A stretch of 53,254 nucleotides of DNA from a virus (lineage: Duplodnaviria; Heunggongvirae; Uroviricota; Caudoviricetes): positions 1 through 53,254 of the IMG/VR virus record IMGVR_UViG_2563366998_000011, one strand, 5' to 3'. Positions 1 through 24,079 of the stretch are shown in pieces (the stretch's first letter is position 1; each line of letters begins with the position of its first letter). A model generated the notes under the pieces. It had not been told where the DNA came from. It saw only the letters and a program-made list of their open reading frames with translations, and made no database searches. The position numbers were made by a program, and so were the translations under genes.

Positions 1-231
1 TTATGTGTTATCTTTGGCTGACGTTAAACCAATCCGATCAAAGAACTGCATTACGTCCTGATAGCGGTACATAACGCCACGCCCGGTCCCAAGTACGTCA
101 ACCGGGTCGGGGAACGGAGTTCCGTTCCGTTCCCATTTTTTACGCCATAAGTAAAACGTTCCCCTGCTAATTCCCCCAAGCATCCGGCAGATGGCAGGGC
201 GACTAAGAAGGATTGTCCCGGTTTTATCCAT
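1..231 (-). CDS. xis: Excisionase / AlpA-family winged-helix DNA-binding protein (Xis-like)
   Basis: 76 aa; pattern W..(K/R)....G.PFP.PV......G....Y resembles lambda Xis/AlpA winged helix; last gene of the minus-strand operon at the window edge, integrase expected just outside. Confidence 0.6.
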   Translation of the reverse strand: MDKTGTILLSRPAICRMLGGISRGTFYLWRKKWERNGTPFPDPVDVLGTGRGVMYRYQDVMQFFDRIGLTSAKDNT

Positions 232-893
232 TATTTATCCCCCGTGTATTCAACGTGTCCGATACATCCATCAATAATAGCTTGCGCCATATTGCGATAA
301 TCGCACGAAAAATCATTGTCGTGGTTAAAGTCAATCTCTTTTGCCGCGTCTTCACCCATAACATTGACAGCAAGTGCAAGCGCGATTTCAGCAAGTGCCT
401 TTTCTTTCGGATCTATATGCAGCTTGAAAGAGCATGTTGTCCATGATAGCGGCCTCTCGCCACAAAAATCTTCCTTGCTTTCACATATAGCCCATTTATC
501 ACCAACATATTTAAACCTGACGACATCAAGAATAGTTCCACTTGTCAAACCTACGCAATCAAGCCACACATTAACAGGAGGCTTATCACCTACGACCCAT
601 TCCGTTTTTTCTTGTTGTGTTTCGCAGTCACGGCGTTCATCTTCGATTAATCCATCAATAATTTCACTTTCTTTATTCATGCCGTCATCATCCTTGTTAG
701 ATAAATTAGCGTATTTATCAAATTTCCAGCTTGCCGCCATAACTGAATAAGTGCCGCGAGTATCAGCGCGGACGCCAACTAAATAGCATGATCCAAAATT
801 GTATTCCGTGCGGCATGTTGTTACCTCAAACGATGGGTAAACATCAGGGTTAGTGCGATGACGAATTATGCCAATTACTCTTGATTCACTCAT
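231..893 (-). CDS. Hypothetical protein
   Basis: ORF 231..908; likely start MSESRV at 893 preceded by GAGGA; no recognisable motif. Confidence 0.5.
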   Translation of the reverse strand: MSESRVIGIIRHRTNPDVYPSFEVTTCRTEYNFGSCYLVGVRADTRGTYSVMAASWKFDKYANLSNKDDDGMNKESEIIDGLIEDERRDCETQQEKTEWVVGDKPPVNVWLDCVGLTSGTILDVVRFKYVGDKWAICESKEDFCGERPLSWTTCSFKLHIDPKEKALAEIALALAVNVMGEDAAKEIDFNHDNDFSCDYRNMAQAIIDGCIGHVEYTGDK

Positions 894-908
894 TTTGTTT
901 ATCCTCAA

Positions 909-1070
909 TTACGCCACTGTTACATTGTCAACCTTAATAAAATATTCAGGATGATTTTCTATTTCGTGCTTAAAGTGCGCGTGACACAATCGCCACTCAC
1001 GCGCCTGGTTGTGAAAGTAATAAACGTATTCGCCATCAACCTTATACAAAATGCCTGTAGGTTTAGCCAT
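909..1070 (-). CDS. Small hypothetical protein (53 aa)
   Basis: ATG-initiated ORF MAKPTGILYKVDGEY... filling the gap upstream of ninB; below the track cutoff. Confidence 0.3.
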   Translation of the reverse strand: MAKPTGILYKVDGEYVYYFHNQAREWRLCHAHFKHEIENHPEYFIKVDNVTVA

Positions 1071-1084
1071 GTAATAACTAGCCA

Positions 1085-1516
1085 TTATTGCCCCCAGCGT
1101 TTTATAAATTCCTCGTTTAATTTCGTATCACCTGACCATTGAACATTATGTTCAGCACCGAACGAGTAGATCAGTTCGATTAATTCGCTAAATTCCGCTT
1201 TACTCATCCGGCTGGTTGATGTTCCCAGCACAACAAAGCCTGATTTGTCCAGGTTAGGGACAACGCCATATTTCTTAAGCCCGGCAGTGAATACCGCCTT
1301 CCAGTCTTCCGGCGACAGCCTCTTACCGTACCAATTAACCTGATCACTAATGTCGGTTAGCAACGCCCATAGAAGGCTATTTTGGCTTAGCGAGCGGGTT
1401 TTCTCCTGGATGGTGATTATCAGCGGGCTTTTGCTATCAGGCTGTATTTCCCTTATCTGCCTGATAGCATTTTCTTTCACGGCGTCGTTGACTATCTCAA
1501 ATCTAATTTGCCTCAT
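1085..1516 (-). CDS. ninB: Recombination protein NinB (Orf family)
   Basis: 143 aa; close match along full length to lambda NinB as recalled (VVTIQE..RSL.QN..LWA....S.QV.W.G..L....WK.VFTA.LK...VVPNL...GFVV.G.STSRM...EF.EL.ELI..FG). Confidence 0.85.
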   Translation of the reverse strand: MRQIRFEIVNDAVKENAIRQIREIQPDSKSPLIITIQEKTRSLSQNSLLWALLTDISDQVNWYGKRLSPEDWKAVFTAGLKKYGVVPNLDKSGFVVLGTSTSRMSKAEFSELIELIYSFGAEHNVQWSGDTKLNEEFIKRWGQ

Positions 1517-1710
1517 AATACACCGTTGCTATTTTTCCATTGCGCCCGCGCATACATGATCGCCCATAAAGAAATGAGCCTTGAACTAGCCATATGGTCG
1601 TTTTTTAGTTTTTTCATATCAACGACGACAGGACGATCAGGATCATCGTCGCGCATGTATTCCGCAATCGTGCTCAGGTCTTCAACTGTTAAATCTAATT
1701 CCTTATCCAT
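1513..1710 (-). CDS. Hypothetical protein
   Basis: 65 aa ORF; start overlaps ninB stop (translational coupling). Confidence 0.45.
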   Translation of the reverse strand: MDKELDLTVEDLSTIAEYMRDDDPDRPVVVDMKKLKNDHMASSRLISLWAIMYARAQWKNSNGVL

Positions 1711-1719
1711 AACGCCACC

Positions 1720-1926
1720 TCACACAATACGCATTGTGTTTCGTAATTCACCGCGCAGCGCGCGCAGTGCATCACGCATTGGTACAAAAAACCGGTTAAA
1801 TTTTACGTGTTTATATTTCCGCATTAGTGGCGGTGTATAAACCATCGCGCCGCAAGAATTGCATGGGAAACGGAAATGTGATTCATCAATGAATGTTTCA
1901 ACTGAATAAAAGATTACACGTCTCAT
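1720..1926 (-). CDS. Hypothetical small Cys-containing protein
   Basis: 68 aa ORF (CNSCG motif), coupled to flanking genes. Confidence 0.4.
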   Translation of the reverse strand: MRRVIFYSVETFIDESHFRFPCNSCGAMVYTPPLMRKYKHVKFNRFFVPMRDALRALRGELRNTMRIV

Positions 1927-2480
1927 AATTCCAATCCAGTTTCACCATTAAGTTTTTCGATCTCAAATACTGGTTTATCCGGCAGCAGGCCGTTATTTTT
2001 CCGGTATTCATTCAGGCGGCTGTCAAAATCAAATGCAAGATCATTAGCGTGACCGAAGCGCCCAGGTTTAAACAGTGAATAAAAATTAAGGCCATGTTTA
2101 TTTGTATCAATGCAAAGTGTCTCATCAAGCACCATTAAACGCAGGGTGCGCGAAAGATAATTCCACGGGATACCTGTTTCAGCGCTAATGTCACGCATAC
2201 GCTTTTTGACGCTGTAGTCACTAAATAACGCCGCCACACGATCGCGACGTTGTGCATACAAATATTTAATCCGATAACCAAGCAAGCGGCGGCGTGGTCC
2301 GAAATATGTATATACACGCTCGACAATGCCAGTGTCGATTAAGTGTTTAATTGTCTCAGGCAAGCATCCTGCTTCGTCATATTCCGCTGATAATCCTGTT
2401 TTCTGGCGTAACTGCTGCATTGTGTCGATGCCATCCAGTTCAAGGATGTTGATAATTTTTGTTTCAAGTTCAATGCTCAT
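1923..2480 (-). CDS. Hypothetical protein (possible N-terminal HTH)
   Basis: ORF 1923..2516; likely start MSIELET at 2480 with GAGG RBS. Confidence 0.5.
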   Translation of the reverse strand: MSIELETKIINILELDGIDTMQQLRQKTGLSAEYDEAGCLPETIKHLIDTGIVERVYTYFGPRRRLLGYRIKYLYAQRRDRVAALFSDYSVKKRMRDISAETGIPWNYLSRTLRLMVLDETLCIDTNKHGLNFYSLFKPGRFGHANDLAFDFDSRLNEYRKNNGLLPDKPVFEIEKLNGETGLEL

Positions 2481-2559
2481 TGTTTTTAGCCTCAATTTAA
2501 GCGCGAAAACAGCCACCAGAAAGCGGTAAACTTTCCGGTAAGCCGTTTGCTCAAGTTAA

Positions 2560-3981
2560 TTAAAAAGATGCTTTATTCTGGTTGTTTCGTGGCGAGAATC
2601 GGCTTACCGCCGGACGTTGTTGCATTGACTGGATGCAAGCTGACGCCGCGCGGGCCTGGTCACACGGTAATATGTTGCCGTTGTCGTCAAAACGCTGGTA
2701 AACAGTCCCGGTTTTTCCGTGACGGTTTTTTGAAACGATAATCTCCATGTATTCGCGTGCAACAGATTGTTCGTTGTAGTAGCCGTCGCGGTATACCATG
2801 ATGATCCGGTCTGCGTCCTGTTCAAGATTGCCGGAATCGCGCAGATCAGAATTGTTCGGTCGCTTGTTCGGTCGTTCCTCGACGCGGCGGGATAATTGCG
2901 CCAGCGCCGCCACTGGTACGCGCAATTCTTTCGCCATCATTTTCAATGACCACGACAATTGCCCTACAGCGAGATCGTGACGTTCTGCCTTAGCCAGCTT
3001 CATTAACCCGATGTAGTCAATCATTACCATACCCAGGTTGGGATAATCCTGCTTCATTCGTTCAGTTGTGGCGCGTATTTCCTCGACAGTTAACTGTGAT
3101 GCATCAACAATCCACACATCGAGATCAGCAAGTGCGCTCATTCCCTGGGCAACGTGCGCCCATCCTTCGTCATCCAGTTTTACCGGATTACGTAAGCAAT
3201 CCGTTGACAAATTCCCTGCGCCAGCGATAGCGCGTTCAGTCATCTGATCGAGCGACATTTCAAGCGTGAACAGCAAAACGCCGACCCGCTGACCTTCGCC
3301 TCCAGGGTATGGGCGTTCAGCCGCCGCGCGGGCAATTGCCAACGCCAACGCCGATTTACCAGACCCTGGGCGTCCGGCGATAAGCACCAGATCAGTAGCG
3401 TTAATGCCGCCTAACATTTCGTCGAGTGGGTCAATCCCTGTTTTGATGTTGTCAGAGTTCACGCCACACTCCATGCGTTTACTTAACACTTCCGTGTATT
3501 CCTGGACCGCATCGCGCAACAGCACCGGGATAATTTGATCTTTTGTTACCTTTAATTTTGAATACCGGGAATCAAAATCTTTCATCGTCTCCCTGACGAC
3601 TTCAAGCGTCCCTGTTTCCAGCTTGTAGCGAATGTCTTCCATTAGTTCCAGCATTTGCCGACGCTGGTGTTCTTCCTGTAGTAGTTGCGCATATCCTTTC
3701 AGGTTGGCAGCAGAAGGGCACGATCGTGCCGTTTGCATTAGCGGTACAAAGTTTTCATTGCCAATCTCATCGCCAACCAATAACGCGTCGATAAGATTTC
3801 TGTTTCTGGCTTGCGCCCGGATAACTTCAAACGCACGTTTATAAAGCGGGATCGTGAACACTTCAGGATCAAGTGTGGCGAGAACATCTTGCGCGTTAGG
3901 AGTAAGGCCACCTAACAGTAGCCCGCCGATAACTGACGCTTCACGTTCCTGCCGTAGTGAGTTTATTTGCTCAGTTACCAT
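2560..3981 (-). CDS. dnaB: Replicative DNA helicase, DnaB family
   Basis: 473 aa; Walker A GRPGSGKSALALAIA; C-terminal DnaB signature LRDSGNLEQDADRIIMVYRD...SKNRHGKTG; DnaB-like N-terminal domain; GGAGG RBS. Confidence 0.85.
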   Translation of the reverse strand: MVTEQINSLRQEREASVIGGLLLGGLTPNAQDVLATLDPEVFTIPLYKRAFEVIRAQARNRNLIDALLVGDEIGNENFVPLMQTARSCPSAANLKGYAQLLQEEHQRRQMLELMEDIRYKLETGTLEVVRETMKDFDSRYSKLKVTKDQIIPVLLRDAVQEYTEVLSKRMECGVNSDNIKTGIDPLDEMLGGINATDLVLIAGRPGSGKSALALAIARAAAERPYPGGEGQRVGVLLFTLEMSLDQMTERAIAGAGNLSTDCLRNPVKLDDEGWAHVAQGMSALADLDVWIVDASQLTVEEIRATTERMKQDYPNLGMVMIDYIGLMKLAKAERHDLAVGQLSWSLKMMAKELRVPVAALAQLSRRVEERPNKRPNNSDLRDSGNLEQDADRIIMVYRDGYYNEQSVAREYMEIIVSKNRHGKTGTVYQRFDDNGNILPCDQARAASACIQSMQQRPAVSRFSPRNNQNKASF

Positions 3982-3999: not shown

Positions 4000-5118
4000 T
4001 TACAAAATGGAATATTCAGGGTAATAAACAAAGCGCCCAATTTCCCCATGATCCGGGCTGTAAATAATCACCGCTGCCAGACGCCGCGACCGCCAGCCGC
4101 CATTAGTTGAATATGCGTCTTTGCCAGCTAATGTGCCGTGGTGCTCAACTATTCCAAGTGATGTTTCAACAACTGATTGATGGTGCAGATGTCCAGTGTG
4201 AGCGTAAACAGCCACAGACCTTCCGAAATCCTCCCGCCAGTCAGCTACGCAAGCAGACAATAAATTTTCCGGCTTTTTGATAGTGTGCCCGTGGTGGTAA
4301 GCAAGGAATGTTTTGCCATACTGTGTGTGGTGGACAATGGCAGGTGACACGTCAACAGTCACGCGCGGCTCATCTTCGTAAAAAGCCGCAAGCGCAGCAC
4401 GTAGCCAGATCATACCTGATTGGTCGTGATTACCGGATAATACCTGGATCTCGACATCCTTATGATTTAGTAACATCTTCCCGACCGCACGCCGGACCGA
4501 CCGGATCGCCACATAAACCAGTTTTGCGTAGCGTGAATCACAATCTAAAACGTGATTACTTGATGGCGTCACTGGTAACAGGCCGTCAGTGTGAAGCACA
4601 TCACCGCCGAGAAGTAAAACAGCTTTTTCAGACATCGGAGCAGCGCCAACAGCGTAGTCAAAGAAGTCATTCAACACGCGCTCAGCGATCCCAGTATCGT
4701 AGCTCTCACCGCATTCAGCTTTATGAGCAAGCGCCCCGATATGCAGATCAAACACCGGATAAAGTGCCAGGCTTTTTTGAAAATCAATTTCAGGCACTGG
4801 CACAGCCTCCGCGCGTGGTATTTCATCAGTGAAAGCGTCGCGGGCCGCTTCCATTAGCTGTTCCATTTCTTCGCGGTCACGGGCTGTTTTAATCCAGCGC
4901 ATGATAACATTGCCGTTCTTATCGACTAGCAACGACTCGCCATTGACGCCAAAACCAGGAGCGCGGCGTGTTGATAATAAACCACGTTTCGCCAGTTTTG
5001 CGCCCAGGCGCTCGACATTGCGTTTTGACATGCCATATTTTTCAGCAATCTGCTTGTACGTTAAACCGTTGTTATATTCAGCGATCAATTGCTCATCGCT
5101 GATTTTTCTTTGCGACAT
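4000..5118 (-). CDS. HTH-domain protein with metallophosphoesterase motifs (possibly replication-associated)
   Basis: 372 aa; N-terminal HTH (LTYKQIAEKYGMSKRNVERL); motifs DLHIG, GGDVLHTDG, SGNHDQ resembling SbcD/Mre11-type metallophosphoesterases; lies between replisome organizer and helicase. Confidence 0.6.
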   Translation of the reverse strand: MSQRKISDEQLIAEYNNGLTYKQIAEKYGMSKRNVERLGAKLAKRGLLSTRRAPGFGVNGESLLVDKNGNVIMRWIKTARDREEMEQLMEAARDAFTDEIPRAEAVPVPEIDFQKSLALYPVFDLHIGALAHKAECGESYDTGIAERVLNDFFDYAVGAAPMSEKAVLLLGGDVLHTDGLLPVTPSSNHVLDCDSRYAKLVYVAIRSVRRAVGKMLLNHKDVEIQVLSGNHDQSGMIWLRAALAAFYEDEPRVTVDVSPAIVHHTQYGKTFLAYHHGHTIKKPENLLSACVADWREDFGRSVAVYAHTGHLHHQSVVETSLGIVEHHGTLAGKDAYSTNGGWRSRRLAAVIIYSPDHGEIGRFVYYPEYSIL

Positions 5119-5152
5119 AATGTTAATTCCTCAGGTTTACATTTTGTATACA

Positions 5153-6596: not shown

Positions 6597-7649
6597 TCAA
6601 AGAGCGCCTGCGCGTGTGTCGCGTAGCGTTTTTGGTTTAAGCAGGAAATCAAGTGTCGCTGTGAAGCCATTGCCGAAGTAAAAATCTGAAGCCGTGTTTT
6701 TGAATGTTTCGAAGTAGGCGACAAAGCCGTTAATGCTTTTGTCTTTCAGGTAGTCAGTGAACGCATAGATCTTGCGTTCAAGATCCCGATCCAGTTCGAC
6801 AGGTGGTAACAGGCCGTCAAACGTGCTGTTAAATGCTTCCACCACGTCGGCAGCGTTTGCAGTGGCTGACAGTTTGCGCCATTGTTCAGCATCAGTCAGA
6901 TACCCATCAAATTTAGTTACCCGGCAAATATTGATAGGCTTAGGTGTTCCACCACGGCTACGCCATTGCGTTAAAGCCCACTCAATCACTAATGTGATCT
7001 CATCCTCCGTATACGCTTTACGTGTTTTTGTTTCTGTCAGTAGTTCGATGAATGGCTTCGCATCACGACATTTGCATCCTGCCTTGTCGTTGTAGAAGGC
7101 CAGGCAACGCAACGCCGCTTCGTTTACGCCATCATGATTGACCATTTTTTGTTCATTTTCGACAATACACGAAGTGTATATATCTTTTTCTCTTTCTTCT
7201 TCTACTTCTAATTCTAATTCATGACCCTTTCCTGACCCGGTCATGACCCTATCATGACCTTTTTGTGTTGGATTGATTAACTTTTCTAATTTTAATTGCT
7301 CCTTAGCTGTGTTTATGGCGGCCCTGTACGCGCTTTTAGAAGTCATTGATTGGTCAAGCCTTTTCAATAACTTTAAACAAGTTATGTGGCCTTGAGAACA
7401 TTCAAACAAACCAATTTCGATGAAGTATTTCATCATTTCTTCTATACGTTTTTCAGTCGATCCGACGTTTCGCGCAATGATTCTCGCGTCATGTCGTAGG
7501 TCAAAAGTCAGATTGTGCTGATCTACGTCATAAGTTATTAGTTCGAGGCAATACCAATAAAGCCCGTACCCTTCCAGGCCATAATCTAACAAAACGTTTT
7601 GAAGTTTTTCATCGCGGTTCGCATCGCTGTCATGCTTAAACCACTTCAT
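6597..7649 (-). CDS. Phage replication initiation / replisome organizer protein (DUF4373-like N-terminus)
   Basis: 350 aa; N-terminus MKWFKHDSDANRDEKL...YGLEGYGLYWYCLELI matches the Lin1244/DUF4373 pattern of phage replisome organizers. Confidence 0.65.
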   Translation of the reverse strand: MKWFKHDSDANRDEKLQNVLLDYGLEGYGLYWYCLELITYDVDQHNLTFDLRHDARIIARNVGSTEKRIEEMMKYFIEIGLFECSQGHITCLKLLKRLDQSMTSKSAYRAAINTAKEQLKLEKLINPTQKGHDRVMTGSGKGHELELEVEEEREKDIYTSCIVENEQKMVNHDGVNEAALRCLAFYNDKAGCKCRDAKPFIELLTETKTRKAYTEDEITLVIEWALTQWRSRGGTPKPINICRVTKFDGYLTDAEQWRKLSATANAADVVEAFNSTFDGLLPPVELDRDLERKIYAFTDYLKDKSINGFVAYFETFKNTASDFYFGNGFTATLDFLLKPKTLRDTRAGAL

Positions 7650-7652: not shown

Positions 7653-7910
7653 TCATCCCTCCGGCAACATCACTACATAGACATCACTGAATGCATCAAG
7701 ACGACAAACAAATCCTTTATCCATTAACGCGGCGAAGGCATCATGTACCGTATGAACAGGAAGTTCACACATTGCGGCTACTTCTTTGCGTGATGCATCA
7801 TGTACCCGTCCTTTGTTATCTGCCTTTTCAGCCAGAGCCATTAAGACAAGTTTTTGAATCGGGCTATTAAGTTTTACGTTCCATGCTTTACTAATCATGT
7901 TTATACTCAT
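7653..7910 (-). CDS. HTH DNA-binding protein at the Cro position
   Basis: ORF 7653..7988; best start MSINMISK at 7910 with AGGAGAAAA RBS; KLVLMALAEKADNKG resembles HTH_36 winged helix; first gene divergent from the repressor. Confidence 0.5.
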   Translation of the reverse strand: MSINMISKAWNVKLNSPIQKLVLMALAEKADNKGRVHDASRKEVAAMCELPVHTVHDAFAALMDKGFVCRLDAFSDVYVVMLPEG

Positions 7911-8180
7911 CGCATTTTCTCCTATGGTTAGAGTGAACGCGCGGGCGGGCATCCCATTAGCATTAGATAGCAGTGACTGACCGCTCAACAGATCCCGCCG
8001 TTGCGTGATATTTGTTTTTCGCTTCGCAGCGACACCGGATTTTTAAAGAGCATAAGGTAAGTGCCTTTTTGTGCCTTCCGTTATCTTTTTCCTTGCGTCT
8101 TTGCAAGTATGGCCTTACCTTGTCTGCAAGTTTACAAAATGGAATTTTAAGATCAAGGCTTAAAATACACGTTTTGTGAC

Positions 8181-8216
8181 TTGCATCAAACTTTTTGAGG
8201 TTATAGGGTAGCGACA
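8181..8216 (+). promoter_or_regulatory. Candidate pRM-like promoter giving a leaderless cI mRNA
   Basis: TTGCAT (8181-8186), 17-bp spacer, TAGGGT (8204-8209); predicted start coincides with the cI ATG at 8216; no SD upstream. Confidence 0.35.
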
Positions 8217-8863: not shown

Positions 8864-8867
8864 ACAT

Positions 8868-8893
8868 TAGCCGCCGAATGGCGGCTTTTCTTT
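8868..8893 (+). terminator. Intrinsic terminator downstream of cI
   Basis: hairpin GCCGCC-GAAT-GGCGGC followed by TTTTCTTT. Confidence 0.6.
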
Positions 8894-14088: not shown

Positions 14089-14092
14089 TCCT

Positions 14093-14326: not shown

Positions 14327-14336
14327 GGGGGACGCA

Positions 14337-15201: not shown

Positions 15202-15339
15202 ATTGCGGCTGTAAGAATGCCTCAATACCAGGCGACTTAATCGCCAGCAGCAAGGTAACGCTAAATAGTGTCCTTGCAAACAGGCTTGATGGTAAGTGTG
15301 ATAACGAATCACTACTACGCGCGGCGGGGTATCATAAAA

Positions 15340-15843: not shown

Positions 15844-16604
15844 GTGGGCTTAGAAATTGGGTGGTGTGGTCGCTGTACGACGGCAGCGGGTACGCCGTTA
15901 AAGATTGGGCCGACGCTGGCTATAAGTGTTATTGTTTCAATTATGACGGCGCTAATCATGGCGATTATGAAGGCGTCAAGATCATTCATCCTAACATTGA
16001 ATATGTCAACGTATGGATTGACAGCCATTTCCTGGTAATGTTCTCCCCTGAATTGTCTGTTTATCCAGATCCTGACATTATCCTGGGCTTTCCTCCGTGC
16101 GACGATCTTGCGGTGTCCGGCGCTCGTTGGTTTTCAAGCAAGCGTGAAAAAGATCCTTACTTCCAGCAGAAGGCGGCATACAACGCAAAACTGGTAGAAA
16201 CGCTTGCTGACATGTACCACGTCCCGTGGATGGTGGAAAACCCGGTTGGAGCACTGTCAACGTTATGGCGTAAGCCGGATTTCATTTTTAATCCGTGCGC
16301 TTACGGTGGCTACCTGCCGGAAGATGATAAGCATCCAGCTTTCCCGGAATACATCGCCGACCGCGACGCCTACACGAAGAAAACTTGTATCTGGTGCGGC
16401 AACGGATTTAAACAGCCGCTATTTCGGCCTGTACCAATGCCTGATGAGTGGGAAGATAGTAAGCAGCACGCGAAGTTAGGCTGGAAGTCGAAGCGCACTA
16501 AGATGATCCGCTCACTCACGCCGCGAGGATTCGCCCGTGCTGTATTCCTGGCTAATGACCGGGCAATCACGCGGACTACTCTTAACCGCGTTTTACCGGA
16601 TTGA
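15840..16604 (+). CDS. Short DNA (cytosine-5)-methyltransferase-like protein
   Basis: 254 aa; motif I-like LYDGSGY, motif IV GFPPCDD, motif VI MVENPVG, motif IX-like IRSLTPRGFARAVF; unusually short variable region. Confidence 0.6.
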   Translation: MSGLRNWVVWSLYDGSGYAVKDWADAGYKCYCFNYDGANHGDYEGVKIIHPNIEYVNVWIDSHFLVMFSPELSVYPDPDIILGFPPCDDLAVSGARWFSSKREKDPYFQQKAAYNAKLVETLADMYHVPWMVENPVGALSTLWRKPDFIFNPCAYGGYLPEDDKHPAFPEYIADRDAYTKKTCIWCGNGFKQPLFRPVPMPDEWEDSKQHAKLGWKSKRTKMIRSLTPRGFARAVFLANDRAITRTTLNRVLPD

Positions 16605-16764
16605 TGTTTACAAAATGGCGTCATTGTGTGATGCGGATCACATAATGGCGCTTTATTGTTTGTTCGCATGTATCCGTTTTGTATACTTCAAACAAACAAA
16701 ATGCTCTTTAAAAATCCGGTAACGCTGAAATGCGTAAAAATCACCTGAAAAAGGAGAGAGCATT

Positions 16765-16941
16765 ATGTCTTTTGAGAATTACCAATGGCATGACGACTAT
16801 GAACGGGAAAGTGTCATGCGTGCAATGTGCAGTGTATGCAGCACGAAGAAGGGAGAATGTAACGAGTGCAACGAATGCGTAGATCGCTTGCTAAGGGCTG
16901 GACACGCCGAAAGGCTGAACGAAACAGAGAATCAAGAATAA
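16765..16941 (+). CDS. Small Cys-rich (zinc-ribbon-like) protein, 58 aa
   Basis: MSFENYQWHDDYERE...CSVCSTKKGECNECNEC; AAAGGAGAGAG RBS; below track cutoff. Confidence 0.4.
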   Translation: MSFENYQWHDDYERESVMRAMCSVCSTKKGECNECNECVDRLLRAGHAERLNETENQE

Positions 16942-16956
16942 TCGGGGTGGTTTTTA

Positions 16957-17561
16957 TGCAAAACCCTAAGAAACCAATAAGACGCCGTTGCAAATGCTGC
17001 GGCGTTTTTTTTGAGCCTAAATATCACAATCAAACGTGGTGCAGCGATGAATGTCTGGAAGAACTGAAGTTTGACCAGCTATGCCGCGACCGTGAGAAGG
17101 CTATGAAGGCTATGGAGCGGAAGAAACGCCGTGATAGCCAGAGGGAAGAACGCAACCGGAAGCGTAAACAGTTAAATCCGCGTAGTTATTGGATCAAACA
17201 AGTTCAAAATGTATTTAACGCCTATATTCGCGAACGTGACGCGCGCTTGCCGTGTATATCTTGCGGGACTTACTACGGTGAGCAATGCGGGTGGGATGCA
17301 GGTCATTACAGGACGGTAGCCGCCGCCGGACACCTTCGCTTCAACGAGGATAATTGCCATAAGCAATGTAGGCACTGCAACCAGACACTAGACGGCAGCA
17401 TCGGAGGGTATCGCCCGGCACTGATTCGAAAAATTGGCCTCGCAAGGGTGGTAGCACTGGAAAACAACAATGATACGCATAAATGGACGATCGCAGAATG
17501 TAAGGAGCTAATAAACATCTATCAGGCGAAATTGGACGCCTTAAGGAGAAAGGCAGCATGA
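16957..17561 (+). CDS. ninG: NinG / Rap recombination protein
   Basis: ORF 16866..17561; likely start MQNPKKPIRRRCKCCG at 16957; NinG-type Cys clusters (CKCCG, CISCG, CRHCN) and FNAYIRERD motif; about 200 aa as lambda NinG. Confidence 0.8.
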
Positions 17562-17965
17562 ATGAATATACTTTTAGCCTGCCTTACCCGCCATCGAATA
17601 ACCGCTATTACCGACATTCACGGGGTTTTCACTATATCAGCGAAGTGGGGAAGGAATACCGGGAACAAGTAAAAGACATCATCGAATTATTAAATCTAGA
17701 CATTAACCTGTCTTGCCGACTGGCAATCGCCATTTATGCCGCGCCGCCTGATAACCGGACCAGGGATCTTGATAATATCCCTAAATGCCTATTTGACAGC
17801 CTTACTTATGCCGGATTTTGGAAAGATGATGGACAAATTGACTCAATAAAAATTGTCCGCTGCCGGAAGGTAAAAGGCGGACGCTTGTTTATTAAGATCC
17901 GCGAACGCGGCGACCTACTACCGGATATTGACGAATACGCGACTAATATGTGGGGTGAGCAATGA
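17558..17965 (+). CDS. rusA: Holliday junction resolvase RusA
   Basis: 135 aa; LPYPPSNNRYYRH and RDLDN motifs match E. coli RusA closely. Confidence 0.9.
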   Translation: MNEYTFSLPYPPSNNRYYRHSRGFHYISEVGKEYREQVKDIIELLNLDINLSCRLAIAIYAAPPDNRTRDLDNIPKCLFDSLTYAGFWKDDGQIDSIKIVRCRKVKGGRLFIKIRERGDLLPDIDEYATNMWGEQ

Positions 17966-18144
17966 AAAACGAAGTTAAAGATCTGCAAATAGATATTCAG
18001 CGCGATGAGCATGATTTAGCTACAGTCCGACAAATCCGGGCTTTTCATATGCGCGAATTGCTTGCATTGAAAGAGCTTGAGAAAAAGTTAGTCCAGTCTA
18101 TTTCTGATCGTAAACAACTTATTGCTCGTTACGGGGGGAAATAA
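17962..18144 (+). CDS. Hypothetical protein
   Basis: 60 aa ORF coupled to flanking genes. Confidence 0.35.
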   Translation: MKNEVKDLQIDIQRDEHDLATVRQIRAFHMRELLALKELEKKLVQSISDRKQLIARYGGK

Positions 18145-18866
18145 TGAATTTAGAATCCATTCTGAAATTCCACTTTCCCAAATCACCGCGATTATCAGAC
18201 GAAAGCCGGGGCACATCCCCGGATGCGCTTAATACGACTGATGCGCTAACCGCTGCAGGTATGGCGCAATCGCGCGTAGAGCTTGGTTACAGCGCTTTTT
18301 TAGGGAAGATGGAACTATCGCAAGCCGAAAAACACAGGGCCGTAGTTTTGCTTACAGAGCGTTTAAGAGCTATGGCAAAAGATTACGAATACGTCATGGA
18401 GCTGGACGAGGACAAACGCAATGATCTTATTATTCTTGTTGCCGTTTTCGCGTTTCGGGATTACTGCCAGAGTGCCGCGACAGAAAAAACTTGTATGGAT
18501 TGCGGCGGATATAAATTTACGTTTGACGACTACGGAGAAAAACACCTTTGCAAAAAATGCAAGGGGCATGGAAAAGTTCGCAATCATTGTAAACGATGCA
18601 AAGGGCGCGGCGAGATACCGGATAAAGCAGCCAGTGAAGCAGCGGAAATGCCAGTGTTCAAAACGTGCCAGCATTGCGGCGGGCGCGGGTACTCGCGTTT
18701 CCCTGTAGATCTTGTCCGGCGTGCGGTTAATCAGCTTGTATTTCCGGTAAGCCGATCAACATGGTGGAAAAAATACCGGGTTTTCTATGAAGACGCCATC
18801 GCTGAATTGTTCAAGGAAGAGGCGCGGGCTGATAACGAAATTAAACGAGTTACGCGGGGTGAATGA
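18144..18866 (+). CDS. Q-like late antiterminator candidate with four CxxCxGxG zinc-finger repeats
   Basis: 240 aa; directly downstream of rusA (Q position in nin region); CMDCGGYK, CKKCKGHG, CKRCKGRG, CQHCGGRG repeats; assignment by position and zinc-finger content only. Confidence 0.45.
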   Translation: MNLESILKFHFPKSPRLSDESRGTSPDALNTTDALTAAGMAQSRVELGYSAFLGKMELSQAEKHRAVVLLTERLRAMAKDYEYVMELDEDKRNDLIILVAVFAFRDYCQSAATEKTCMDCGGYKFTFDDYGEKHLCKKCKGHGKVRNHCKRCKGRGEIPDKAASEAAEMPVFKTCQHCGGRGYSRFPVDLVRRAVNQLVFPVSRSTWWKKYRVFYEDAIAELFKEEARADNEIKRVTRGE

Positions 18867-19069
18867 TGGATAAACTGGAAATAAACGATCAGTTTGCCGT
18901 TATCTTGTTCGAAGATAAAACAGGCGGCGCATGGTGTAAGAAAGTCACTGGTGCTGAAGCACGCTTAATATTGGGTATGGCAAGCGCGTTAAATGATGGC
19001 GAATTGCCAGCCGTGCCAATTAAGCCAGTACATATTTACGGACGGAGTAACGACAATGAAAATACTTAA
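18863..19069 (+). CDS. Hypothetical protein
   Basis: 68 aa ORF, ATGATGG overlap with upstream stop. Confidence 0.4.
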   Translation: MMDKLEINDQFAVILFEDKTGGAWCKKVTGAEARLILGMASALNDGELPAVPIKPVHIYGRSNDNENT

Positions 19070-19403
19070 CATTGGGTGGCTGTATTGCGAAAACTGCGAC
19101 GACGATGGCATGGTCGTAAAAACCGAAAAAGGTTGCGGCCTCATGCTGTATCAAGGTGATAAATTCGTTTGTCCTCGCTGCGGCGGCGGTGGTGAGATAG
19201 AAATTGTTAATGATATTGCTACAGCATATAAGCCATCTCGCATTGCCCTTGATGAAAAAATAAAAATTCATCCTTATTTATTACAGCAAATTATCGATCA
19301 CGTATCGGCAGCCGCAATCTATAGCGGTAACAATTATCAGCGAGAAATGAACGTCAAACGTGCGATTGAGCAGTATTTCGAAGGTGACGACAATGAAGCC
19401 TAA
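19056..19403 (+). CDS. Hypothetical zinc-finger protein
   Basis: start MKILNIG at 19056 with GGAG RBS; CENC...CPRCGGGG. Confidence 0.45.
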   Translation: MKILNIGWLYCENCDDDGMVVKTEKGCGLMLYQGDKFVCPRCGGGGEIEIVNDIATAYKPSRIALDEKIKIHPYLLQQIIDHVSAAAIYSGNNYQREMNVKRAIEQYFEGDDNEA

Positions 19404-19662
19404 ATTAAAAGAGCATGAATTTAGGGATCTCATAAACGGAATAACCGATAAAGCTAGGATGTACTCAAATGCGCAACAGTTAAGGGCGGTTATAGTTACG
19501 GAATTAATGAAATACATTGAGCCATGCGGACCAGGCGACGAAATGACTATGGATAAGGCCATCAAGCGCCGTTCGGCTGATTGGTCGGTTAGTAACACTG
19601 GATTAACCGGATACATTGAAGGCTATAACGACTGTTTACAGGATCATGGCAATGAAAAGTAA
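19393..19662 (+). CDS. Hypothetical protein
   Basis: ORF 19360..19662, ATG at 19393. Confidence 0.4.
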   Translation: MKPKLKEHEFRDLINGITDKARMYSNAQQLRAVIVTELMKYIEPCGPGDEMTMDKAIKRRSADWSVSNTGLTGYIEGYNDCLQDHGNEK

Positions 19663-19867
19663 CCGCAAGCGCCTTGTAAGGGCATACGATAAAGCATTAA
19701 AGGCTTTTGATGATCTGCGACACAATAAGCGCCAGCGCCGCAAATGGGCGCGTATGCTTGTTTATGAGTGGCATTATTCTGATGCTTTCATGGAAAGTGC
19801 GCCGCTATTAACACAGGAACAAGCCGACGAAGTAGCTAACGATAACGTTTATTATATGATGTGGTGA
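19646..19867 (+). CDS. Hypothetical basic protein
   Basis: ORF 19616..19867, ATG at 19646. Confidence 0.4.
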   Translation: MAMKSNRKRLVRAYDKALKAFDDLRHNKRQRRKWARMLVYEWHYSDAFMESAPLLTQEQADEVANDNVYYMMW

Positions 19868-19871
19868 TAAT

Positions 19872-20237
19872 ATGCAAATAATCATTGATTATCTTTGCCA
19901 TGCTGCAAATACGCTTTTTGGTTTTTATCAACAACCATTCCTCAAAGAATGGGACGAAATGCTTAATGACATCATTGATAAAGGGTTAATAGTTGAGGTT
20001 GGCGAGCTAACGATAAAATTTAATTACGAAGGCAAAGAATATGATATATGGGTAGGTAACAGATGGTACGCATACGGGCATATTTATTCAATTGGCGGCA
20101 AATACATTAAACGTAGCCAGGAGTTCAGGCCGCGATTCCGCACAATGCGCCGCCTGCGTGACCTGCATATGAATATATTTGAAAATCAGGAAGCGTGTGA
20201 ACTATTCAAAATCTACGGAGATAAATCATGGAACTAA
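19872..20237 (+). CDS. Hypothetical protein
   Basis: 121 aa ORF. Confidence 0.45.
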   Translation: MQIIIDYLCHAANTLFGFYQQPFLKEWDEMLNDIIDKGLIVEVGELTIKFNYEGKEYDIWVGNRWYAYGHIYSIGGKYIKRSQEFRPRFRTMRRLRDLHMNIFENQEACELFKIYGDKSWN

Positions 20238-20458
20238 AAATCTGGCAGGGTATCGACGTAGTTGATAATGAATTGTCTATGTTCGCCACTAACGGGAAAC
20301 GCGTGGTGATCGCTACATGGACGCGCAACCATGATGATATAGCTTTTCGTCGCAAGGCTGCGGAGTGGCTTTTCTCTGATGAAGGCTACACGATGAATAT
20401 CTCCCAGCTTGCCAGAATGAAGGATGAAAAGCTGGTTGATAGTTACACAACTGCATAG
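20228..20458 (+). CDS. Hypothetical protein
   Basis: 76 aa ORF. Confidence 0.4.
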   Translation: MELKIWQGIDVVDNELSMFATNGKRVVIATWTRNHDDIAFRRKAAEWLFSDEGYTMNISQLARMKDEKLVDSYTTA

Positions 20459-20468
20459 TGGGGCAAAT

Positions 20469-20702
20469 ATGTGTATCTATGAACACAAGCGGGATAAAAC
20501 CCGCTTTTTTGTTCGTGCTGGCGTGGCTTACCAGTATCACGACTGCGGATATATCGAGGCGCTTGCTTACGATCTGGACTTCGAACAAGAAAAAGAATGG
20601 TTCGATTTCAAAATTTACCGGAAGCGTAAACCGACGCGCGACGAGCGACACGCTATCCGGGACTTTTTAATCAGCATAGACCGCTGGGAGACAGAGGAAT
20701 GA
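20469..20702 (+). CDS. Hypothetical protein
   Basis: ORF 20424..20702, ATG at 20469. Confidence 0.4.
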   Translation: MCIYEHKRDKTRFFVRAGVAYQYHDCGYIEALAYDLDFEQEKEWFDFKIYRKRKPTRDERHAIRDFLISIDRWETEE

Positions 20703-20986
20703 GAGCGAAGAAAACAGCAGATCAGAAAGCGTTAGTTATCACTACAACTGATGTGTCGTTATTCACGAAGGGTGAAGAAATAGATCTTAAATTACTTTTC
20801 GGCATGTTTGAGCCACACGAAAAGCCGTGGTTCGTGCATGAAGACAAACAGGGAAATATGCGCGTAGTAGTGCCGGACAAAAACAGCGACATATTTTTTG
20901 CTATTCCAGACCCGTTACATGACGGTGAATTGCTGGCGGTATTGTTGATCGCTGATGCTGTTACTTATAAAGGGAAAGAAATATGA
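20699..20986 (+). CDS. Hypothetical protein
   Basis: 95 aa ORF. Confidence 0.4.
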   Translation: MRAKKTADQKALVITTTDVSLFTKGEEIDLKLLFGMFEPHEKPWFVHEDKQGNMRVVVPDKNSDIFFAIPDPLHDGELLAVLLIADAVTYKGKEI

Positions 20987-21210
20987 AAGTTAAATTCTTG
21001 CACGATCACGGCTACCCATCATTAAAACGCGTGGTAGGGGAAACGGTAGACGTTGTTCATTCTGATGATGTGACCTGCGTCATTTTGGGTAAAGACCTTA
21101 TCGCTCACGGTGCTGATGATTACTACATTAACCCGGCGTGGTCATATACGTTTAGCCTGGGCGACTTCGTAGGCGATAAGGGGCGCGGCTTGCAAGTAGT
21201 CGAGGGTTAA
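20983..21210 (+). CDS. Hypothetical protein
   Basis: 75 aa ORF. Confidence 0.4.
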   Translation: MKVKFLHDHGYPSLKRVVGETVDVVHSDDVTCVILGKDLIAHGADDYYINPAWSYTFSLGDFVGDKGRGLQVVEG

Positions 21211-21214
21211 TATC

Positions 21215-21463
21215 ATGGACGTTTACGAAGATTTATACCTTCAAACAAATACCAGCACTTTTTATTTTTTGAAAAACGGCGTCGTATATCGCAGCGACAA
21301 CGGGGTGATAATGAAAGAGTGTTTATTTAAGCGTAAAGACCTACTCGAAGATCTGGTTTTTGCCGGGATATTTCGTAAACGTCCGGCTAACCTGGAAGAA
21401 GAAATGTTGATTGAGGTTATTAAACATGAAAATCAGGGTAAGTTATTTCCGGGCGAAAGATAA
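21215..21463 (+). CDS. Hypothetical protein
   Basis: 82 aa ORF. Confidence 0.4.
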   Translation: MDVYEDLYLQTNTSTFYFLKNGVVYRSDNGVIMKECLFKRKDLLEDLVFAGIFRKRPANLEEEMLIEVIKHENQGKLFPGER

Positions 21464-21677
21464 GGCAACAGGAAAGCGGATGGCGATCCTGGTTAATGAA
21501 GCTAATTATATGTTTGTGCTTCAGCCGTGGTGCATAGCTGACTATAACGATGATTATCGCCGTCACGGTGCGCGGGGTGCTGTAGGGATGAAGGGATGGC
21601 AACCGCGTGACATGGAAAACTATTGTGAATGGAAATTGATAGCAAAATATACGGTCGATTATAAAGGTGTTTTCTAA
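21426..21677 (+). CDS. Hypothetical protein
   Basis: ORF 21411..21677, ATG at 21426. Confidence 0.4.
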   Translation: MKIRVSYFRAKDKATGKRMAILVNEANYMFVLQPWCIADYNDDYRRHGARGAVGMKGWQPRDMENYCEWKLIAKYTVDYKGVF

Positions 21678-21883
21678 TGTACGTCAGATGCACTGAATCA
21701 AAATCATCATGCTTTGAGGTTGGCGGAATATATACCGTAGATCACCTGACTGGTGATGAACTTAACACCCAATACATTAAAGACGACCTCGGCGACGCGT
21801 GGCGCTATTGGGATTGCTACGCGCGTGGACACGTTACCAGTCAGTTTGGTACGGAACCGATCGCGCGTTTTGTTAAGTGGTGA
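21677..21883 (+). CDS. Hypothetical protein
   Basis: 68 aa ORF. Confidence 0.4.
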   Translation: MYVRCTESKSSCFEVGGIYTVDHLTGDELNTQYIKDDLGDAWRYWDCYARGHVTSQFGTEPIARFVKW

Positions 21884-21997
21884 GGCGTTGGACAACCATA
21901 AATGTGATCTGTATCACAATGTATACGAAATGGCATTGTTTCGACAGTGCCATTTTGTTATATATAAGCCACGGAAAGACGGAGGGGAGGCAAGAAG

Positions 21998-22138
21998 ATG
22001 AGCGCTAACGCTAAATATCCGGCATGGGTTTTTGAGTTATACGCCCGCTACTTTGAATTGCTGGCACAAGGTGAAGAAGCATTAAGCATTGACGAGTACG
22101 CGGAGTGCTTAGGGTTTAAAGGAGACGAAGAAGCATAA
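21998..22138 (+). CDS. Small hypothetical protein (46 aa)
   Basis: GGAGGGGAGG RBS then ATG at 21998; below track cutoff. Confidence 0.35.
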   Translation: MSANAKYPAWVFELYARYFELLAQGEEALSIDEYAECLGFKGDEEA

Positions 22139-22181
22139 AACACGGGGCCGGATGGCCCCATCAAATCAGAAGGGTGTAATC

Positions 22182-22475
22182 ATGAAAAGCGCTAAATTTA
22201 TTGCTTGCTGTTTTGTTGAAGTTCCCTATAACGATGCGTTCTATCACGCTACTTTTACCGATAAGAATGGGAATGATCACGTTATTGTCGGCAAGCGTGG
22301 TGACTGGCTTTATATAACTGATGATGATTGCATTTTCACTAAAAATCAGTTGCAAAAACTGGTTATCGGTAAACAGGAACAGGAAGGCTATCAAATCATC
22401 CCGGTGGAAAGACTGAAAAGGGAGCAGAGAATTAAACGCGCTCAAGAGGAATTAAATAACATAAAGGGTATGTGA
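22182..22475 (+). CDS. Hypothetical protein
   Basis: ORF 22152..22475, ATG at 22182. Confidence 0.4.
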   Translation: MKSAKFIACCFVEVPYNDAFYHATFTDKNGNDHVIVGKRGDWLYITDDDCIFTKNQLQKLVIGKQEQEGYQIIPVERLKREQRIKRAQEELNNIKGM

Positions 22476-22476
22476 T

Positions 22477-22731
22477 ATGAAAACAATCAGACTATGGCGC
22501 GGCAATAGCCGACTTGATGGTGAGTACATCCGCGTGATTGAAGATGTTAATCGTGGTCGGTTTTATGAATTGGCATACAGCGAAAAAAGGGAGAAAGAAT
22601 ATCTGAACGAATCGACCCCTATGTGGCGTAAAGTGGCTGGCCTTGCCTCAATTCTGCGCCACGGGTTTTATGCAGATCATAACACGCTAATTGATGCCGA
22701 ACTGGTGACAACTCTTTACGAAGGAGAATAA
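22477..22731 (+). CDS. Hypothetical protein
   Basis: 84 aa ORF. Confidence 0.4.
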   Translation: MKTIRLWRGNSRLDGEYIRVIEDVNRGRFYELAYSEKREKEYLNESTPMWRKVAGLASILRHGFYADHNTLIDAELVTTLYEGE

Positions 22732-22734
22732 ACA

Positions 22735-23058
22735 ATGAGTAAATTTATCAGCGTTAAGGTTTTCCGTGGCAATTTTCCAGAAGATAAAGAAATTGGACAA
22801 TTCGCAGGTGAACGTGGCGTATGTTTCCGTGTAGCTACTGAAGACGATGCGCACGTTAAATGCTTTCACGTATCTGAACCGCCTTTTAATGCAGACCATC
22901 TTGAAGACCTGAATAGAATTAAAAGCCTTATTTTTGCCTATCTGGCGTTCCCTGGCATAGCTGATGCTGATGTTGAATTGGTTGGGGCCGAACTGGTGGC
23001 AGAATACAAAATGACTGAAGGCGAAAACGGAGGGGTGGAAATTGAGCGCATCAAATAA
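22735..23058 (+). CDS. Hypothetical protein
   Basis: 107 aa ORF. Confidence 0.4.
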   Translation: MSKFISVKVFRGNFPEDKEIGQFAGERGVCFRVATEDDAHVKCFHVSEPPFNADHLEDLNRIKSLIFAYLAFPGIADADVELVGAELVAEYKMTEGENGGVEIERIK

Positions 23059-23293
23059 GCTGTATAAAGTCAGGTGTAAAGGCGAATACCCTGGCTTTAC
23101 GGTTGGTTGCGAATATCTGGGCCACATTGGGTACGGCCCTTTCGGTGAGTTGGGAATGAATACGATTGACGACGACGGCGACAGCAGGACGCTTGATCTT
23201 GATAGCGATGATTTCGAATACATCCCGCCAGTCACTTACCGCGTCGTCGATGATTTCCTGGCTGAACATGAAGACGAGGATGATGATGATTGA
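23042..23293 (+). CDS. Hypothetical acidic protein
   Basis: 83 aa; C-terminal EHEDEDDDD. Confidence 0.4.
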   Translation: MSASNKLYKVRCKGEYPGFTVGCEYLGHIGYGPFGELGMNTIDDDGDSRTLDLDSDDFEYIPPVTYRVVDDFLAEHEDEDDDD

Positions 23294-23480
23294 ATGCCTT
23301 ATCGCTGTGATTGTTTTGCTTTATATCGCTGGCGCGATCCTGATGTCATGTTTTATTAAGTTTAGCGGCGCTGAACCTGGTGGCCTTGAGATTCCTTTTT
23401 GGCCTGTGACTGTGTTTATCGCTTTCTTCGACGCTACGGCAGAGCAGATCAATCGAGCTATTAAGGAGCGCAAGAAATGA
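23286..23480 (+). CDS. Small membrane protein
   Basis: ORF 23166..23480; ATG cluster at 23280-23286; two hydrophobic helices. Confidence 0.4.
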   Translation: MIECLIAVIVLLYIAGAILMSCFIKFSGAEPGGLEIPFWPVTVFIAFFDATAEQINRAIKERKK

Positions 23481-23656
23481 TTGAAGATGGGGTGTACGCA
23501 ACAGTAGTAGACGGGCTGTTTTACCGCGTAGAAGGTGATGATATTCGCATCCGCGTTGGCGGTGGTGAGTGGGTAGCGCCAATCATTAAGACGACGCGAG
23601 AAACAATTAAAATATTTCTTGATGCTGGTGAACTGGTGAGGGTTAGCGACCTATGA
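23477..23656 (+). CDS. Hypothetical protein (59 aa)
   Basis: MIEDGVYATVVDG...; paralogous N-terminus with next gene. Confidence 0.35.
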   Translation: MIEDGVYATVVDGLFYRVEGDDIRIRVGGGEWVAPIIKTTRETIKIFLDAGELVRVSDL

Positions 23657-23829
23657 ACGAGATCGAAGATGGTATCTATTTACATAAGGTATTTAACATC
23701 GTCTATTTGGTTAGAGGTGAATCGGTGATGATAAGACCTGATGATGATCCTTATTGGGAATTAAGCGACATGGATCGGTGGCATATGCAAACATTGCTTG
23801 ATAATGGCCTGATATATAGAAAGCCGTAA
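23653..23829 (+). CDS. Hypothetical protein (58 aa)
   Basis: MNEIEDGIYLHK...; shares IEDG(V/I)Y start with previous gene. Confidence 0.35.
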   Translation: MNEIEDGIYLHKVFNIVYLVRGESVMIRPDDDPYWELSDMDRWHMQTLLDNGLIYRKP

Positions 23830-23851
23830 AGCCGTATTTGTTGGGGGGAAT

Positions 23852-24079
23852 ATGGAAGAAATGGTTTTACTGTCATCAATATGGCATCGGTTCGGAACTG
23901 AAAAAGGATACTCACCTGCTTGCTGGCTGGATAGTAAAAGCGGAAAGGAGTATCAAAACGAGTGCGAATTTAGAAGGGAGTGGCGAGGTGGTAAGGAAGT
24001 GCAAGGATATTTTGCACCAAAACACGTTGCCGCCAAATACAAAGAATGGCTTGTGCGTTTGCTTGGCCCTTATCGTTAA
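23852..24079 (+). CDS. Hypothetical protein
   Basis: 75 aa ORF flanked by 15-bp direct repeats TAAAGCCGTATTTGT. Confidence 0.4.
   Translation: MEEMVLLSSIWHRFGTEKGYSPACWLDSKSGKEYQNECEFRREWRGGKEVQGYFAPKHVAAKYKEWLVRLLGPYR

Follow-up and report, generated by a model that had tools for sequence, protein, structure and literature searches.

Introduction

Among described phages, the closest relatives of the DNA analysed here are the mEp021-like temperate phages of Escherichia coli, called mEpimmI, which were described from 48 genomes as a cohesive, highly syntenic and "Nus-dependent non-lambdoid" group (Negrete-Méndez 2025, PMC11893012). These phages encode a CI-like repressor, a Q-like protein and an N-like protein, Gp17, with conserved arginines R17, R19, R20 and R24 (PMC11893012). 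As summarized in that paper from Valencia-Toxqui 2023, Gp17 acts at three sites, of which nutL precedes the repressor gene, nutR1 precedes gp17, and nutR2 lies further downstream. In this group, nutL is placed in the interval from gp14 to the repressor gene and nutR2 ahead of the nin/Q genes, and terminators t1 to t5 are listed, of which t5 is reported to have been shown experimentally (PMC11893012). Co-infection of immunity-I phages with a lambda tester gave no viable progeny, and the group neither hybridised to lambda DNA probes nor cross-reacted with anti-lambda antibodies; furthermore, most members are not inducible by ultraviolet light (PMC11893012). Integration takes place at ydaM, abgT or mppA, with one of four integrase types. 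Here, we report the early region of a tailed-phage sequence of 53,254 nucleotides (nt) (IMG/VR record IMGVR_UViG_2563366998_000011, positions 1 to 53,254; hereafter, the window means this whole stretch), in which the N-like gene and the replication genes lie in two oppositely oriented arms around a repressor gene.

An initial description of positions 1-24000, made from the letters and the open reading frames (ORFs) and hereafter called the sequence-only reading, had proposed that the module order is non-canonical, as if distal arm segments had been exchanged. We conclude, with a probability of roughly 0.9, that the window is a mEp021-like (mEpimmI) temperate siphophage genome of E. coli and that its "swapped" order is the native and invariant architecture of that group. 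The finding is already known, since the layout, the N-like system and the group are all published, and the window is an ordinary member. The value of the analysis is mainly in classification, in that the window can be filed as a mEpimmI-type phage, and the structural deduction made from raw sequence proved correct.

The Gene Order Is Genuine and Shared by the mEpimmI Group

When positions 1-24000 were searched by megablast, the phages mEp010, 554, 044, 515, 013 and 021 each matched as a single colinear place, with 87-88% identity over 74-85% of the query, and MagusPhagus matched with 91% identity. Among complete E. coli genomes (5,426 searched), a colinear chromosomal prophage was present in 35, and in 28 of these the match extended over 80% or more of the query. 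The closest prophage, that of strain M15, showed 93.5% identity over 92% of the query and adjoins dgcM (ydaM). No record with 95% or higher identity to the window was found in the phage and E. coli collections. In the M15 prophage, the stretch examined ended where the late region starts, and all genes between the repressor gene (locus 12340), itself included, and that point are on the plus strand; the integrase gene is also on the plus strand, and its 3' end overlaps a convergent small helix-turn-helix (HTH) gene. In addition, when IMG/VR was scanned for the N-like protein, 42 loci were obtained; 39 of them reach the other arm, and all 39 have the marker order and strands of the window. The markers used were the xis-like gene, NinB, helicase, phosphoesterase, O-like and gp14 genes on the minus side, and cI, N, Erf, SSB and Dam on the plus side.

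These results bear on the possibility that the order is an assembly artefact, that is, a mis-joined or wrongly inverted segment in the contig. The window is cut inside the integrase gene, as are several IMG/VR contigs, which shows that it stems from automated prophage or contig extraction. However, the same order was found in 7 independently sequenced phage isolates, in the 35 finished E. coli chromosomes and in every informative IMG/VR locus, and the orientations of the nut sites and terminators and the guanine-cytosine (GC) skew all agree with it. Because independent phages, chromosomes and metagenomic loci share the order, an assembly inversion is ruled out and the chance of any such artefact is negligible; the arrangement is genuine, neither an assembly error nor a one-off. 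Specifically, the GC skew is negative to ~8 kilobases (kb) and positive from there to 25 kb, and this change of sign fits a true switch of the coding strand at the immunity region. As for the left end, position 1 of the window corresponds to position 1340 of mEp021, inside the 3' end of int, and several IMG/VR contigs begin within 3 nt of the window's first base; since these contigs share that start, the left end is an extraction cut within int and not a phage end. The integrase gene thus lies outside the window, on the strand opposite to the excisionase-like gene and convergent with it, as seen in the mEp021 annotation and in M15.

Membership in the group was also apparent from the proteins of the immunity region. 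The N-like antiterminator (Gp17 equivalent; 9364-9654, plus strand; phrog_271, E 1e-13) is 92.7% identical to mEp021 gp17 and 92-100% identical across mEpimmI phages, and its translation contains the stretch NARERRRIKRE, with R17, R19, R20, R21 and R24 all present. The repressor (8216-8863, plus strand) has the HTH_3 and Peptidase_S24 domains of the CI type, with 40% identity to P22 c2 and 34% to lambda cI, and these domains would be the basis of the immunity I shared in the group. In overall similarity and architecture, in the Gp17 arginines, in three nut-like sites and in the repressor domains, the window agrees with the mEpimmI phages, as judged from its sequence.

The sequence-only reading held up in its main lines. 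N, erf and ssb are on one strand with Dam, ninG, rusA, Q, lysis and structural genes, as determined by family searches and the ORF map; the replisome organizer, helicase and ninB run leftward, as determined by Pfam, PHROG and tblastn; and the nin genes are split, with ninB on the minus strand and ninG/rusA on the plus strand. The assignments of N, Erf, NinB and the helicase hold in database searches, and the independent genomes leave no room for an inversion made during assembly. The term "non-canonical" is right relative to lambda and P22, but the order is the standard one of a described phage group.

Nut-Like Sites, Terminators and Promoters

Three nut-like sites were found in the early region. 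The leftward-facing nutL (8019-8052, minus strand) lies between the repressor gene and the leftward arm, and consists of boxA TGCTCTTTAAAAA (8052-8040), a 7-nt spacer and boxB UCGCU-GCGA-AGCGA. On the plus strand, nutR1 (9270-9307), 57 nt upstream of the N-like gene, has boxA CGCTCATTAACAA, a spacer and boxB GCCGC-UGGAAGU-GCGGC, and nutR2 (16702-16739) has boxA at 16702-16714 and boxB ACGC-UGAAAU-GCGU. The latter is located at the junction of the accessory region and the nin/Q block, just before the NinF-position gene, ninG, rusA and Q. The 13-mer TGCTCTTTAAAAA, which presumably resembles an rrn-type boxA, occurs exactly twice in the 53 kb, as the boxA of nutL and of nutR2. Both copies are followed by a TCCGGT spacer and then a short hairpin, and boxA plus spacer are identical over 19 nt. 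All three nut-like sites recur at homologous positions in mEp021 and the M15 prophage and, as judged by location, they match the published nut placement.

The nutL and nutR2 sites together form an inverted repeat (8015-8053 and 16701-16739; 39 nt, 85% complementary), the longest in 1-20 kb, with arms 8.6 kb apart. Such a repeat could belong to a programmed DNA switch, in which case the early region would be an invertible segment and the window would show one of two orientations. The alternative orientation was unseen in more than 80 genomes, and no invertase or serine-recombinase family was matched among the scanned proteins of the early region. Furthermore, the segment inverted relative to P22 (~1 kb to ~16.7 kb) is not bordered by the arms of this repeat, and flipping 8053-16701 would give an arrangement unlike any known phage. 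We therefore rejected the switch, which we regard as very improbable, and keep to the native mEpimmI order.

Putative terminators are distributed over both arms. The repressor gene is followed by a terminator (8869-8886, plus strand) that is t1 (TERM_1) of mEp021. From N to Q, the plus strand carries at least three terminator-like hairpins: one at the t2 position of mEp021 (11413-11429), further ones at 13700/13878, and a strong one at the t4 position (16617-16652), immediately before nutR2. Another hairpin (24144-24166, plus strand), just before the holin gene, is at the t5 (TERM_5) position. In the leftward arm, a hairpin with a 12-pair stem followed by a T run (2513-2541, minus strand) is located directly 3' of the helicase gene.

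The leftward arm and the repressor gene are separated by a divergent control region (8053-8215), in which an imperfect palindrome of 61 bp includes the TACAAAATGGA motif. Among sigma-70-like sites of the region, the best one, TTGACT-17-TATATT (8987-9015, plus strand; 10 of 12 consensus matches), lies after the repressor terminator and before nutR1 and the N arm, and the TACAAAATGGA motif abuts it upstream. A late-promoter-like site, TTGTAG-17-TAAAAT (24088-24116, plus strand), precedes the holin gene.

Several points weigh against our reading. The transcript structure of both arms was deduced from sequence features, and the boxB hairpins are too short to beat shuffled controls by energy (z -0.3 to -1.1). 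A consensus promoter scan gave no more sites than shuffled sequence and did not locate the promoter of the leftward arm. The antitermination details of Valencia-Toxqui 2023 are second-hand, as they are given in PMC11893012. In addition, the searches yielded no close relative with an un-inverted order, which would prove an inversion event; outside the group, the most similar helicases are P22-like and reach just 57% identity, with nothing between.

A Model for the Two Early Transcription Units

The model starts from what is observed, namely gene identities, strand, order, nut-like sequences, hairpins, and conservation across more than 80 genomes. The CI-type repressor gene would lie between two outward-facing early transcription units. 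The leftward unit would comprise nutL, the winged-helix gene, the O-like initiator with the origin, accessory genes, the helicase, a terminator, NinB and the excisionase-like gene. The rightward unit would start at the promoter-like site after the repressor terminator and pass through nutR1, Gp17, Erf, SSB and Abc2, and then through accessory genes, the strong terminator, nutR2, NinG, RusA, Q, the lysis genes and the structural genes. Gp17 together with host Nus factors would modify RNA polymerase at the three nut sites, leading to read-through of terminators in both arms. Gp17 antitermination at three nut sites, the terminators t1, t2 and t5, and the function of the repressor are taken from the literature. 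N thus lies in cis to Q and the late genes, and expression of the replication genes would come from the opposite arm.

The sequence-only reading had made late genes dependent on the N-bearing operon, and this is supported by the presence of nutR1 before N, at least three hairpins from N to Q, and nutR2 before ninG/rusA/Q, in agreement with the published Gp17 system of mEp021. It had also proposed that replication and integration functions are co-transcribed. The excisionase-like gene is in the replication arm and would share its transcript; it is the only integration function that can do so, because int, which lies beyond the window, is on the opposite strand and convergent. Note that we infer where the promoters lie, that the excisionase-like gene and the replication genes share a transcript, and that an inversion took place historically.

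Genes of the Leftward Arm

The first gene of the leftward arm (7653-7898, minus strand), the equivalent of mEp021 gp14, encodes an 81-amino-acid winged-helix protein that matches phrog_4617 (N-terminal domain of replication initiators; E 4e-22), and its AlphaFold2 (AF2) model matches winged-helix folds of the MarR type. The sequence-only reading had called it the Cro-position gene. The position stands, but the protein is a MarR-like winged helix with no Cro family match in Pfam or NCBIfam, and a PDB sequence search returned noise. Homologues of Cro, cII and cIII were not detected anywhere in the early region. A Cro-like function of this product is conceivable.

It is followed by the O-like replication initiator (6597-7649, minus strand), which has a Lin1244_N domain and matches phrog_345/428 (replication initiation O-like); its C-terminal 90 amino acids are 36% identical to the C-terminus of P22 gp18. 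Iteron-like tandem repeats of 11-12 nt units in 3-4 copies are located within the initiator gene (7183-7263), and these probably mark the replication origin, by analogy with lambda O and P22 gene 18. Beyond the initiator gene is a variable cassette of low GC content (0.37) encoding a DUF559 protein (PF04480; 5153-6289, minus strand); this gene was seen in just 3 related IMG/VR loci, and in mEp021 its place is taken by zinc-ribbon and HNH genes.

The next gene (4000-5118, minus strand) encodes a phosphoesterase / DNA-repair-exonuclease-like protein (phrog_704, E 8.5e-140). It shows 66-70% nucleotide identity to virulent T1-like (Drexlerviridae-type) phages of Citrobacter, Salmonella and Escherichia, a match that suggests gene exchange between temperate and virulent phages. 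The DnaB-type replicative helicase (2560-3981, minus strand; PF03796, E 2e-75, and PF00772) is P22 gp12-like, with 57% identity. Between helicase and ninB is a gene for a MarR-like and weakly Ren-like protein (1923-2516, minus strand; phrog_1687, E 1e-7; phrog_142 "Ren-like", E 2.5e-4), and two small ORFs separate this gene from ninB. NinB itself (1085-1516, minus strand; PF05772, E 3e-46), a recombination mediator of the Orf family, is 52% identical to both lambda NinB and P22 NinB.

Two further ORFs lie between ninB and the last gene of the arm (1-231, minus strand), which encodes a small HTH protein of 76 amino acids, the "xis" of the sequence-only reading. Its product matched HTH_23 of Pfam (E 2.5e-6) and phrog_4745 ("DNA binding protein"); no excisionase family match and no NCBIfam name were obtained, and a PDB sequence search gave noise. 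The single-sequence AF2 model had a predicted local distance difference test (pLDDT) score of 81.5 and was confident in 1 of 5 models, and its best match in PDB was the GIsul2 excisionase (8c3t; probability 0.99, E 0.09). In relatives, the 5' part of this gene overlaps the 3' end of the convergent int. Alleles fall into two classes, with 88-100% and 45-57% identity to the window copy, and the allele class tracks the integrase type in 30 of 30 loci, the window's allele being of the class that accompanies the mEp021/M15-type integrase. Given its context and modelled fold, the protein is likely an excisionase; the earlier name thus holds by context and fold, but not by family match.

Genes of the Rightward Arm and the Late Region

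All genes described in this section are on the plus strand unless otherwise stated. Downstream of N are Erf (9801-10445), SSB (10445-10864) and a homologue of the anti-RecBCD protein Abc2 (10881-11159). Many small ORFs lie between Abc2 and Dam, and the rightward unit has ~20 accessory genes plus methyltransferases. Specifically, a Dam-type N6-adenine methyltransferase (14337-14876; PF05869, E 2e-52) is followed by a second DNA methyltransferase. The small gene at the NinF position (16765-16941) takes its label from the mEp021 annotation alone, because tblastn against lambda and P22 found no match for it. The nin/Q block continues with NinG (16866-17561, probable start near 16956), RusA (17558-17965) and the Q-type antiterminator (18144-18866; PF03589), which is 34% identical to lambda Q and to P22 gp23. 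The lysis cassette (24187-25338) consists of holin, lysozyme and Rz, with lysozyme and Rz at 24263-25338, and structural genes follow.

Between Q and the group formed by the late-promoter-like site, the terminator and the holin gene are ~5.3 kb (18866-24187) with ~20 small ORFs on the plus strand, unlike in lambda, where the late promoter is located directly after Q. The 14-mer AAAGCCGTATTTGT occurs twice, at 23828 and 24079, and the second copy overlaps the putative late promoter.

Within the plus-strand structural cluster there are two minus-strand genes (124 and 219 amino acids; 37176-38220), and a perfect hairpin with a 12-bp stem, formed by two TACAAAATGG copies (38270-38305), borders this pair. 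The two genes may be a superinfection-exclusion or moron island, which in mEpimmI phages is placed in the structural cluster (PMC11893012). In the tail region, an STnc490 Hfq-binding small RNA (Rfam, 146 bits, full length; 40734-40857) lies directly 3' of a 780-amino-acid ORF (38348-40690).

A Dispersed 11-mer and a Shared Leader

The 11-mer TACAAAATGKA, with the core palindrome TACA-N3-TGTA, has 19 matches in the window with at most one mismatch, compared with 3.0 ± 2.0 (maximum 10) in shuffled sequences. Copies are located at 4001, 5138, 8133, 8976, 9655, 13072, 13096, 16609, 16673, 38270, 38295, 41595, 41986, 42058, 51098 and 51132. They are mainly intergenic, and often form inverted pairs flanking terminators or cassettes. 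Specifically, one copy lies left of the repressor gene, within the control region, one abuts the -35 element of the rightward promoter, and another is found just after N; others flank the t4 hairpin as an inverted pair, lie on both sides of the phosphoesterase gene, and surround the minus-strand islands of the tail region. In 19 related 20-kb loci, the motif occurs 8-13 times, compared with ~1 expected, and its positions are conserved. From this distribution, the motif could be an operator or regulator site, or a signal at cassette or mosaic boundaries.

A 34-nt inverted repeat (5116-5149 and 9654-9687; 82% complementary) makes up the 5' leaders of the phosphoesterase gene on the minus strand and of the small ORF after N on the plus strand. 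Within this repeat, the TACAAAATGTA motif precedes a ribosome-binding site and ATG.

Origin of the Layout

When marker proteins of the window were compared with P22 by tblastn, NinB (1085), the helicase (2560) and the C-terminus of the O-like initiator (6597) matched P22 positions 34750, 33294 and 33031, and the repressor (8216) and Erf (9801) matched 31016 and 27269. The P22 block erf–c2–18–12–ninB is thus represented in the window by five markers that are colinear but inverted. NinG (16866), Q (18144) and Rz (24868) matched P22 positions 36003, 37186 and 39105 in direct order. The suggestion that arms had been exchanged was therefore borne out by alignment to lambda and P22. In terms of marker order, the layout is what a single inversion would give if it ran from the recombination genes to ninB and so took in the entire early control region; the arm exchange of the sequence-only reading is the same change viewed from the middle. 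This equivalence also accounts for the shared direction of the repressor gene and N, which is likewise seen in lambda.

One history that would give this layout is that the mEpimmI early region goes back to a lambdoid ancestor of the P22 type, in which ~16 kb were inverted in one event; one breakpoint would separate xis from ninB, and the other the accessory genes from ninF/ninG. Under this scenario, nutR2, a near-copy of nutL at the right-hand junction, would have been recruited to restore N-dependent read-through into the nin-Q genes, and TACAAAATGKA at cassette junctions would be a family-specific regulatory or recombination signal. We consider this full scenario unlikely. Note that the N-like protein had no relative among GTDB species-representative genomes, and that scanning the same genomes with the initiator gave just distant Lin1244_N-domain matches in unrelated bacteria, which is uninformative on relatives with the canonical order.

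Alternatively, the layout may have been assembled independently by mosaic recombination of modules, so that its resemblance to an inverted P22 would reflect functional clustering of genes. Identities to P22 and lambda are just 34-57%, the Lin1244-type N-terminus of the initiator is unlike lambda O or P22 gp18, and the phosphoesterase gene resembles those of T1-like phages. Furthermore, int and the excisionase-like gene converge, which is not the case in lambda or P22, the Cro, cII and cIII homologues are lacking as noted above, and whole-proteome trees set the group apart from lambdoids (PMC11893012). However, the five inverted-block and three direct-block markers are strictly colinear with P22, and fine details match P22 or lambda, such as Abc2 after Erf, the terminator after the helicase, the gene at the Ren position, and iterons inside the initiator gene. 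Independent assembly is still live as a tentative possibility, because of the low identities and the lack of intermediates to the 57% helicases. An explicit statement of an inversion relative to the lambdoid order was not found in literature searches. The main text of PMC11893012 does not contain the words "inverted", "opposite", "orientation", "NinB" or "helicase", and states neither the inversion relation nor TACAAAATGKA. The inversion framing may thus add a little to the published layout.

Comparison with mEp021, P22 and Lambda

The early region of mEp021 (GenBank MH706966; mEp010, 013, 044, 515, 554 and MagusPhagus are alike) is colinear with that of the window at 87-91% nucleotide identity, with genes on the same strands and the three nut sites at the same places. 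Differences are the DUF559 cassette mentioned above, the truncated integrase gene of the window, and an N4/N6 methyltransferase after NinB in mEp021, which the window does not have.

Relative to P22, protein identities are 52% for NinB, 57% for gp12, 36% for the gp18 C-terminus, 40% for c2, 53% for Erf, 51% for NinG and 34% for Q/gp23; Rz is homologous, and the order within each block is alike. In the pL operon of P22, Abc2 is downstream of Erf, as in the window, where SSB lies between them. P22 also has a terminator directly after gene 12, similar to lambda tR2, at the same relative position as the hairpin of the window. On the other hand, N in the window shares its strand with Q and the late genes, and xis lies in the direction in which the replication genes are read. 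Furthermore, the window has three nut sites versus two in P22, no Cro or c1 homologue, an int on the strand opposite to the excisionase-like gene, and virion genes of the siphovirus type.

With lambda, the window shares a cascade of N-type and Q-type antitermination, nut sites with boxA and boxB, a CI-type repressor between two outward early promoters, and homologues of NinB, NinG, Q and Rz, as well as a probable origin inside the initiator gene and a gene at the ren position. The differences are that the contents of the two arms are swapped, that Erf/SSB/Abc2 replace Exo/Bet/Gam, and that a DnaB-type helicase replaces the P loader. Regarding the features by which lambdoid phages are defined, N-type and Q-type genes with nut-like sites are present, but the canonical order int-xis-recombination-N-cI-cro-replication-nin-Q-lysis-structural is not, nor is there a Cro homologue divergent from cI. 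The group thus resembles a lambdoid early region turned round, and offers a natural test of how far the regulatory logic of lambda depends on gene order.

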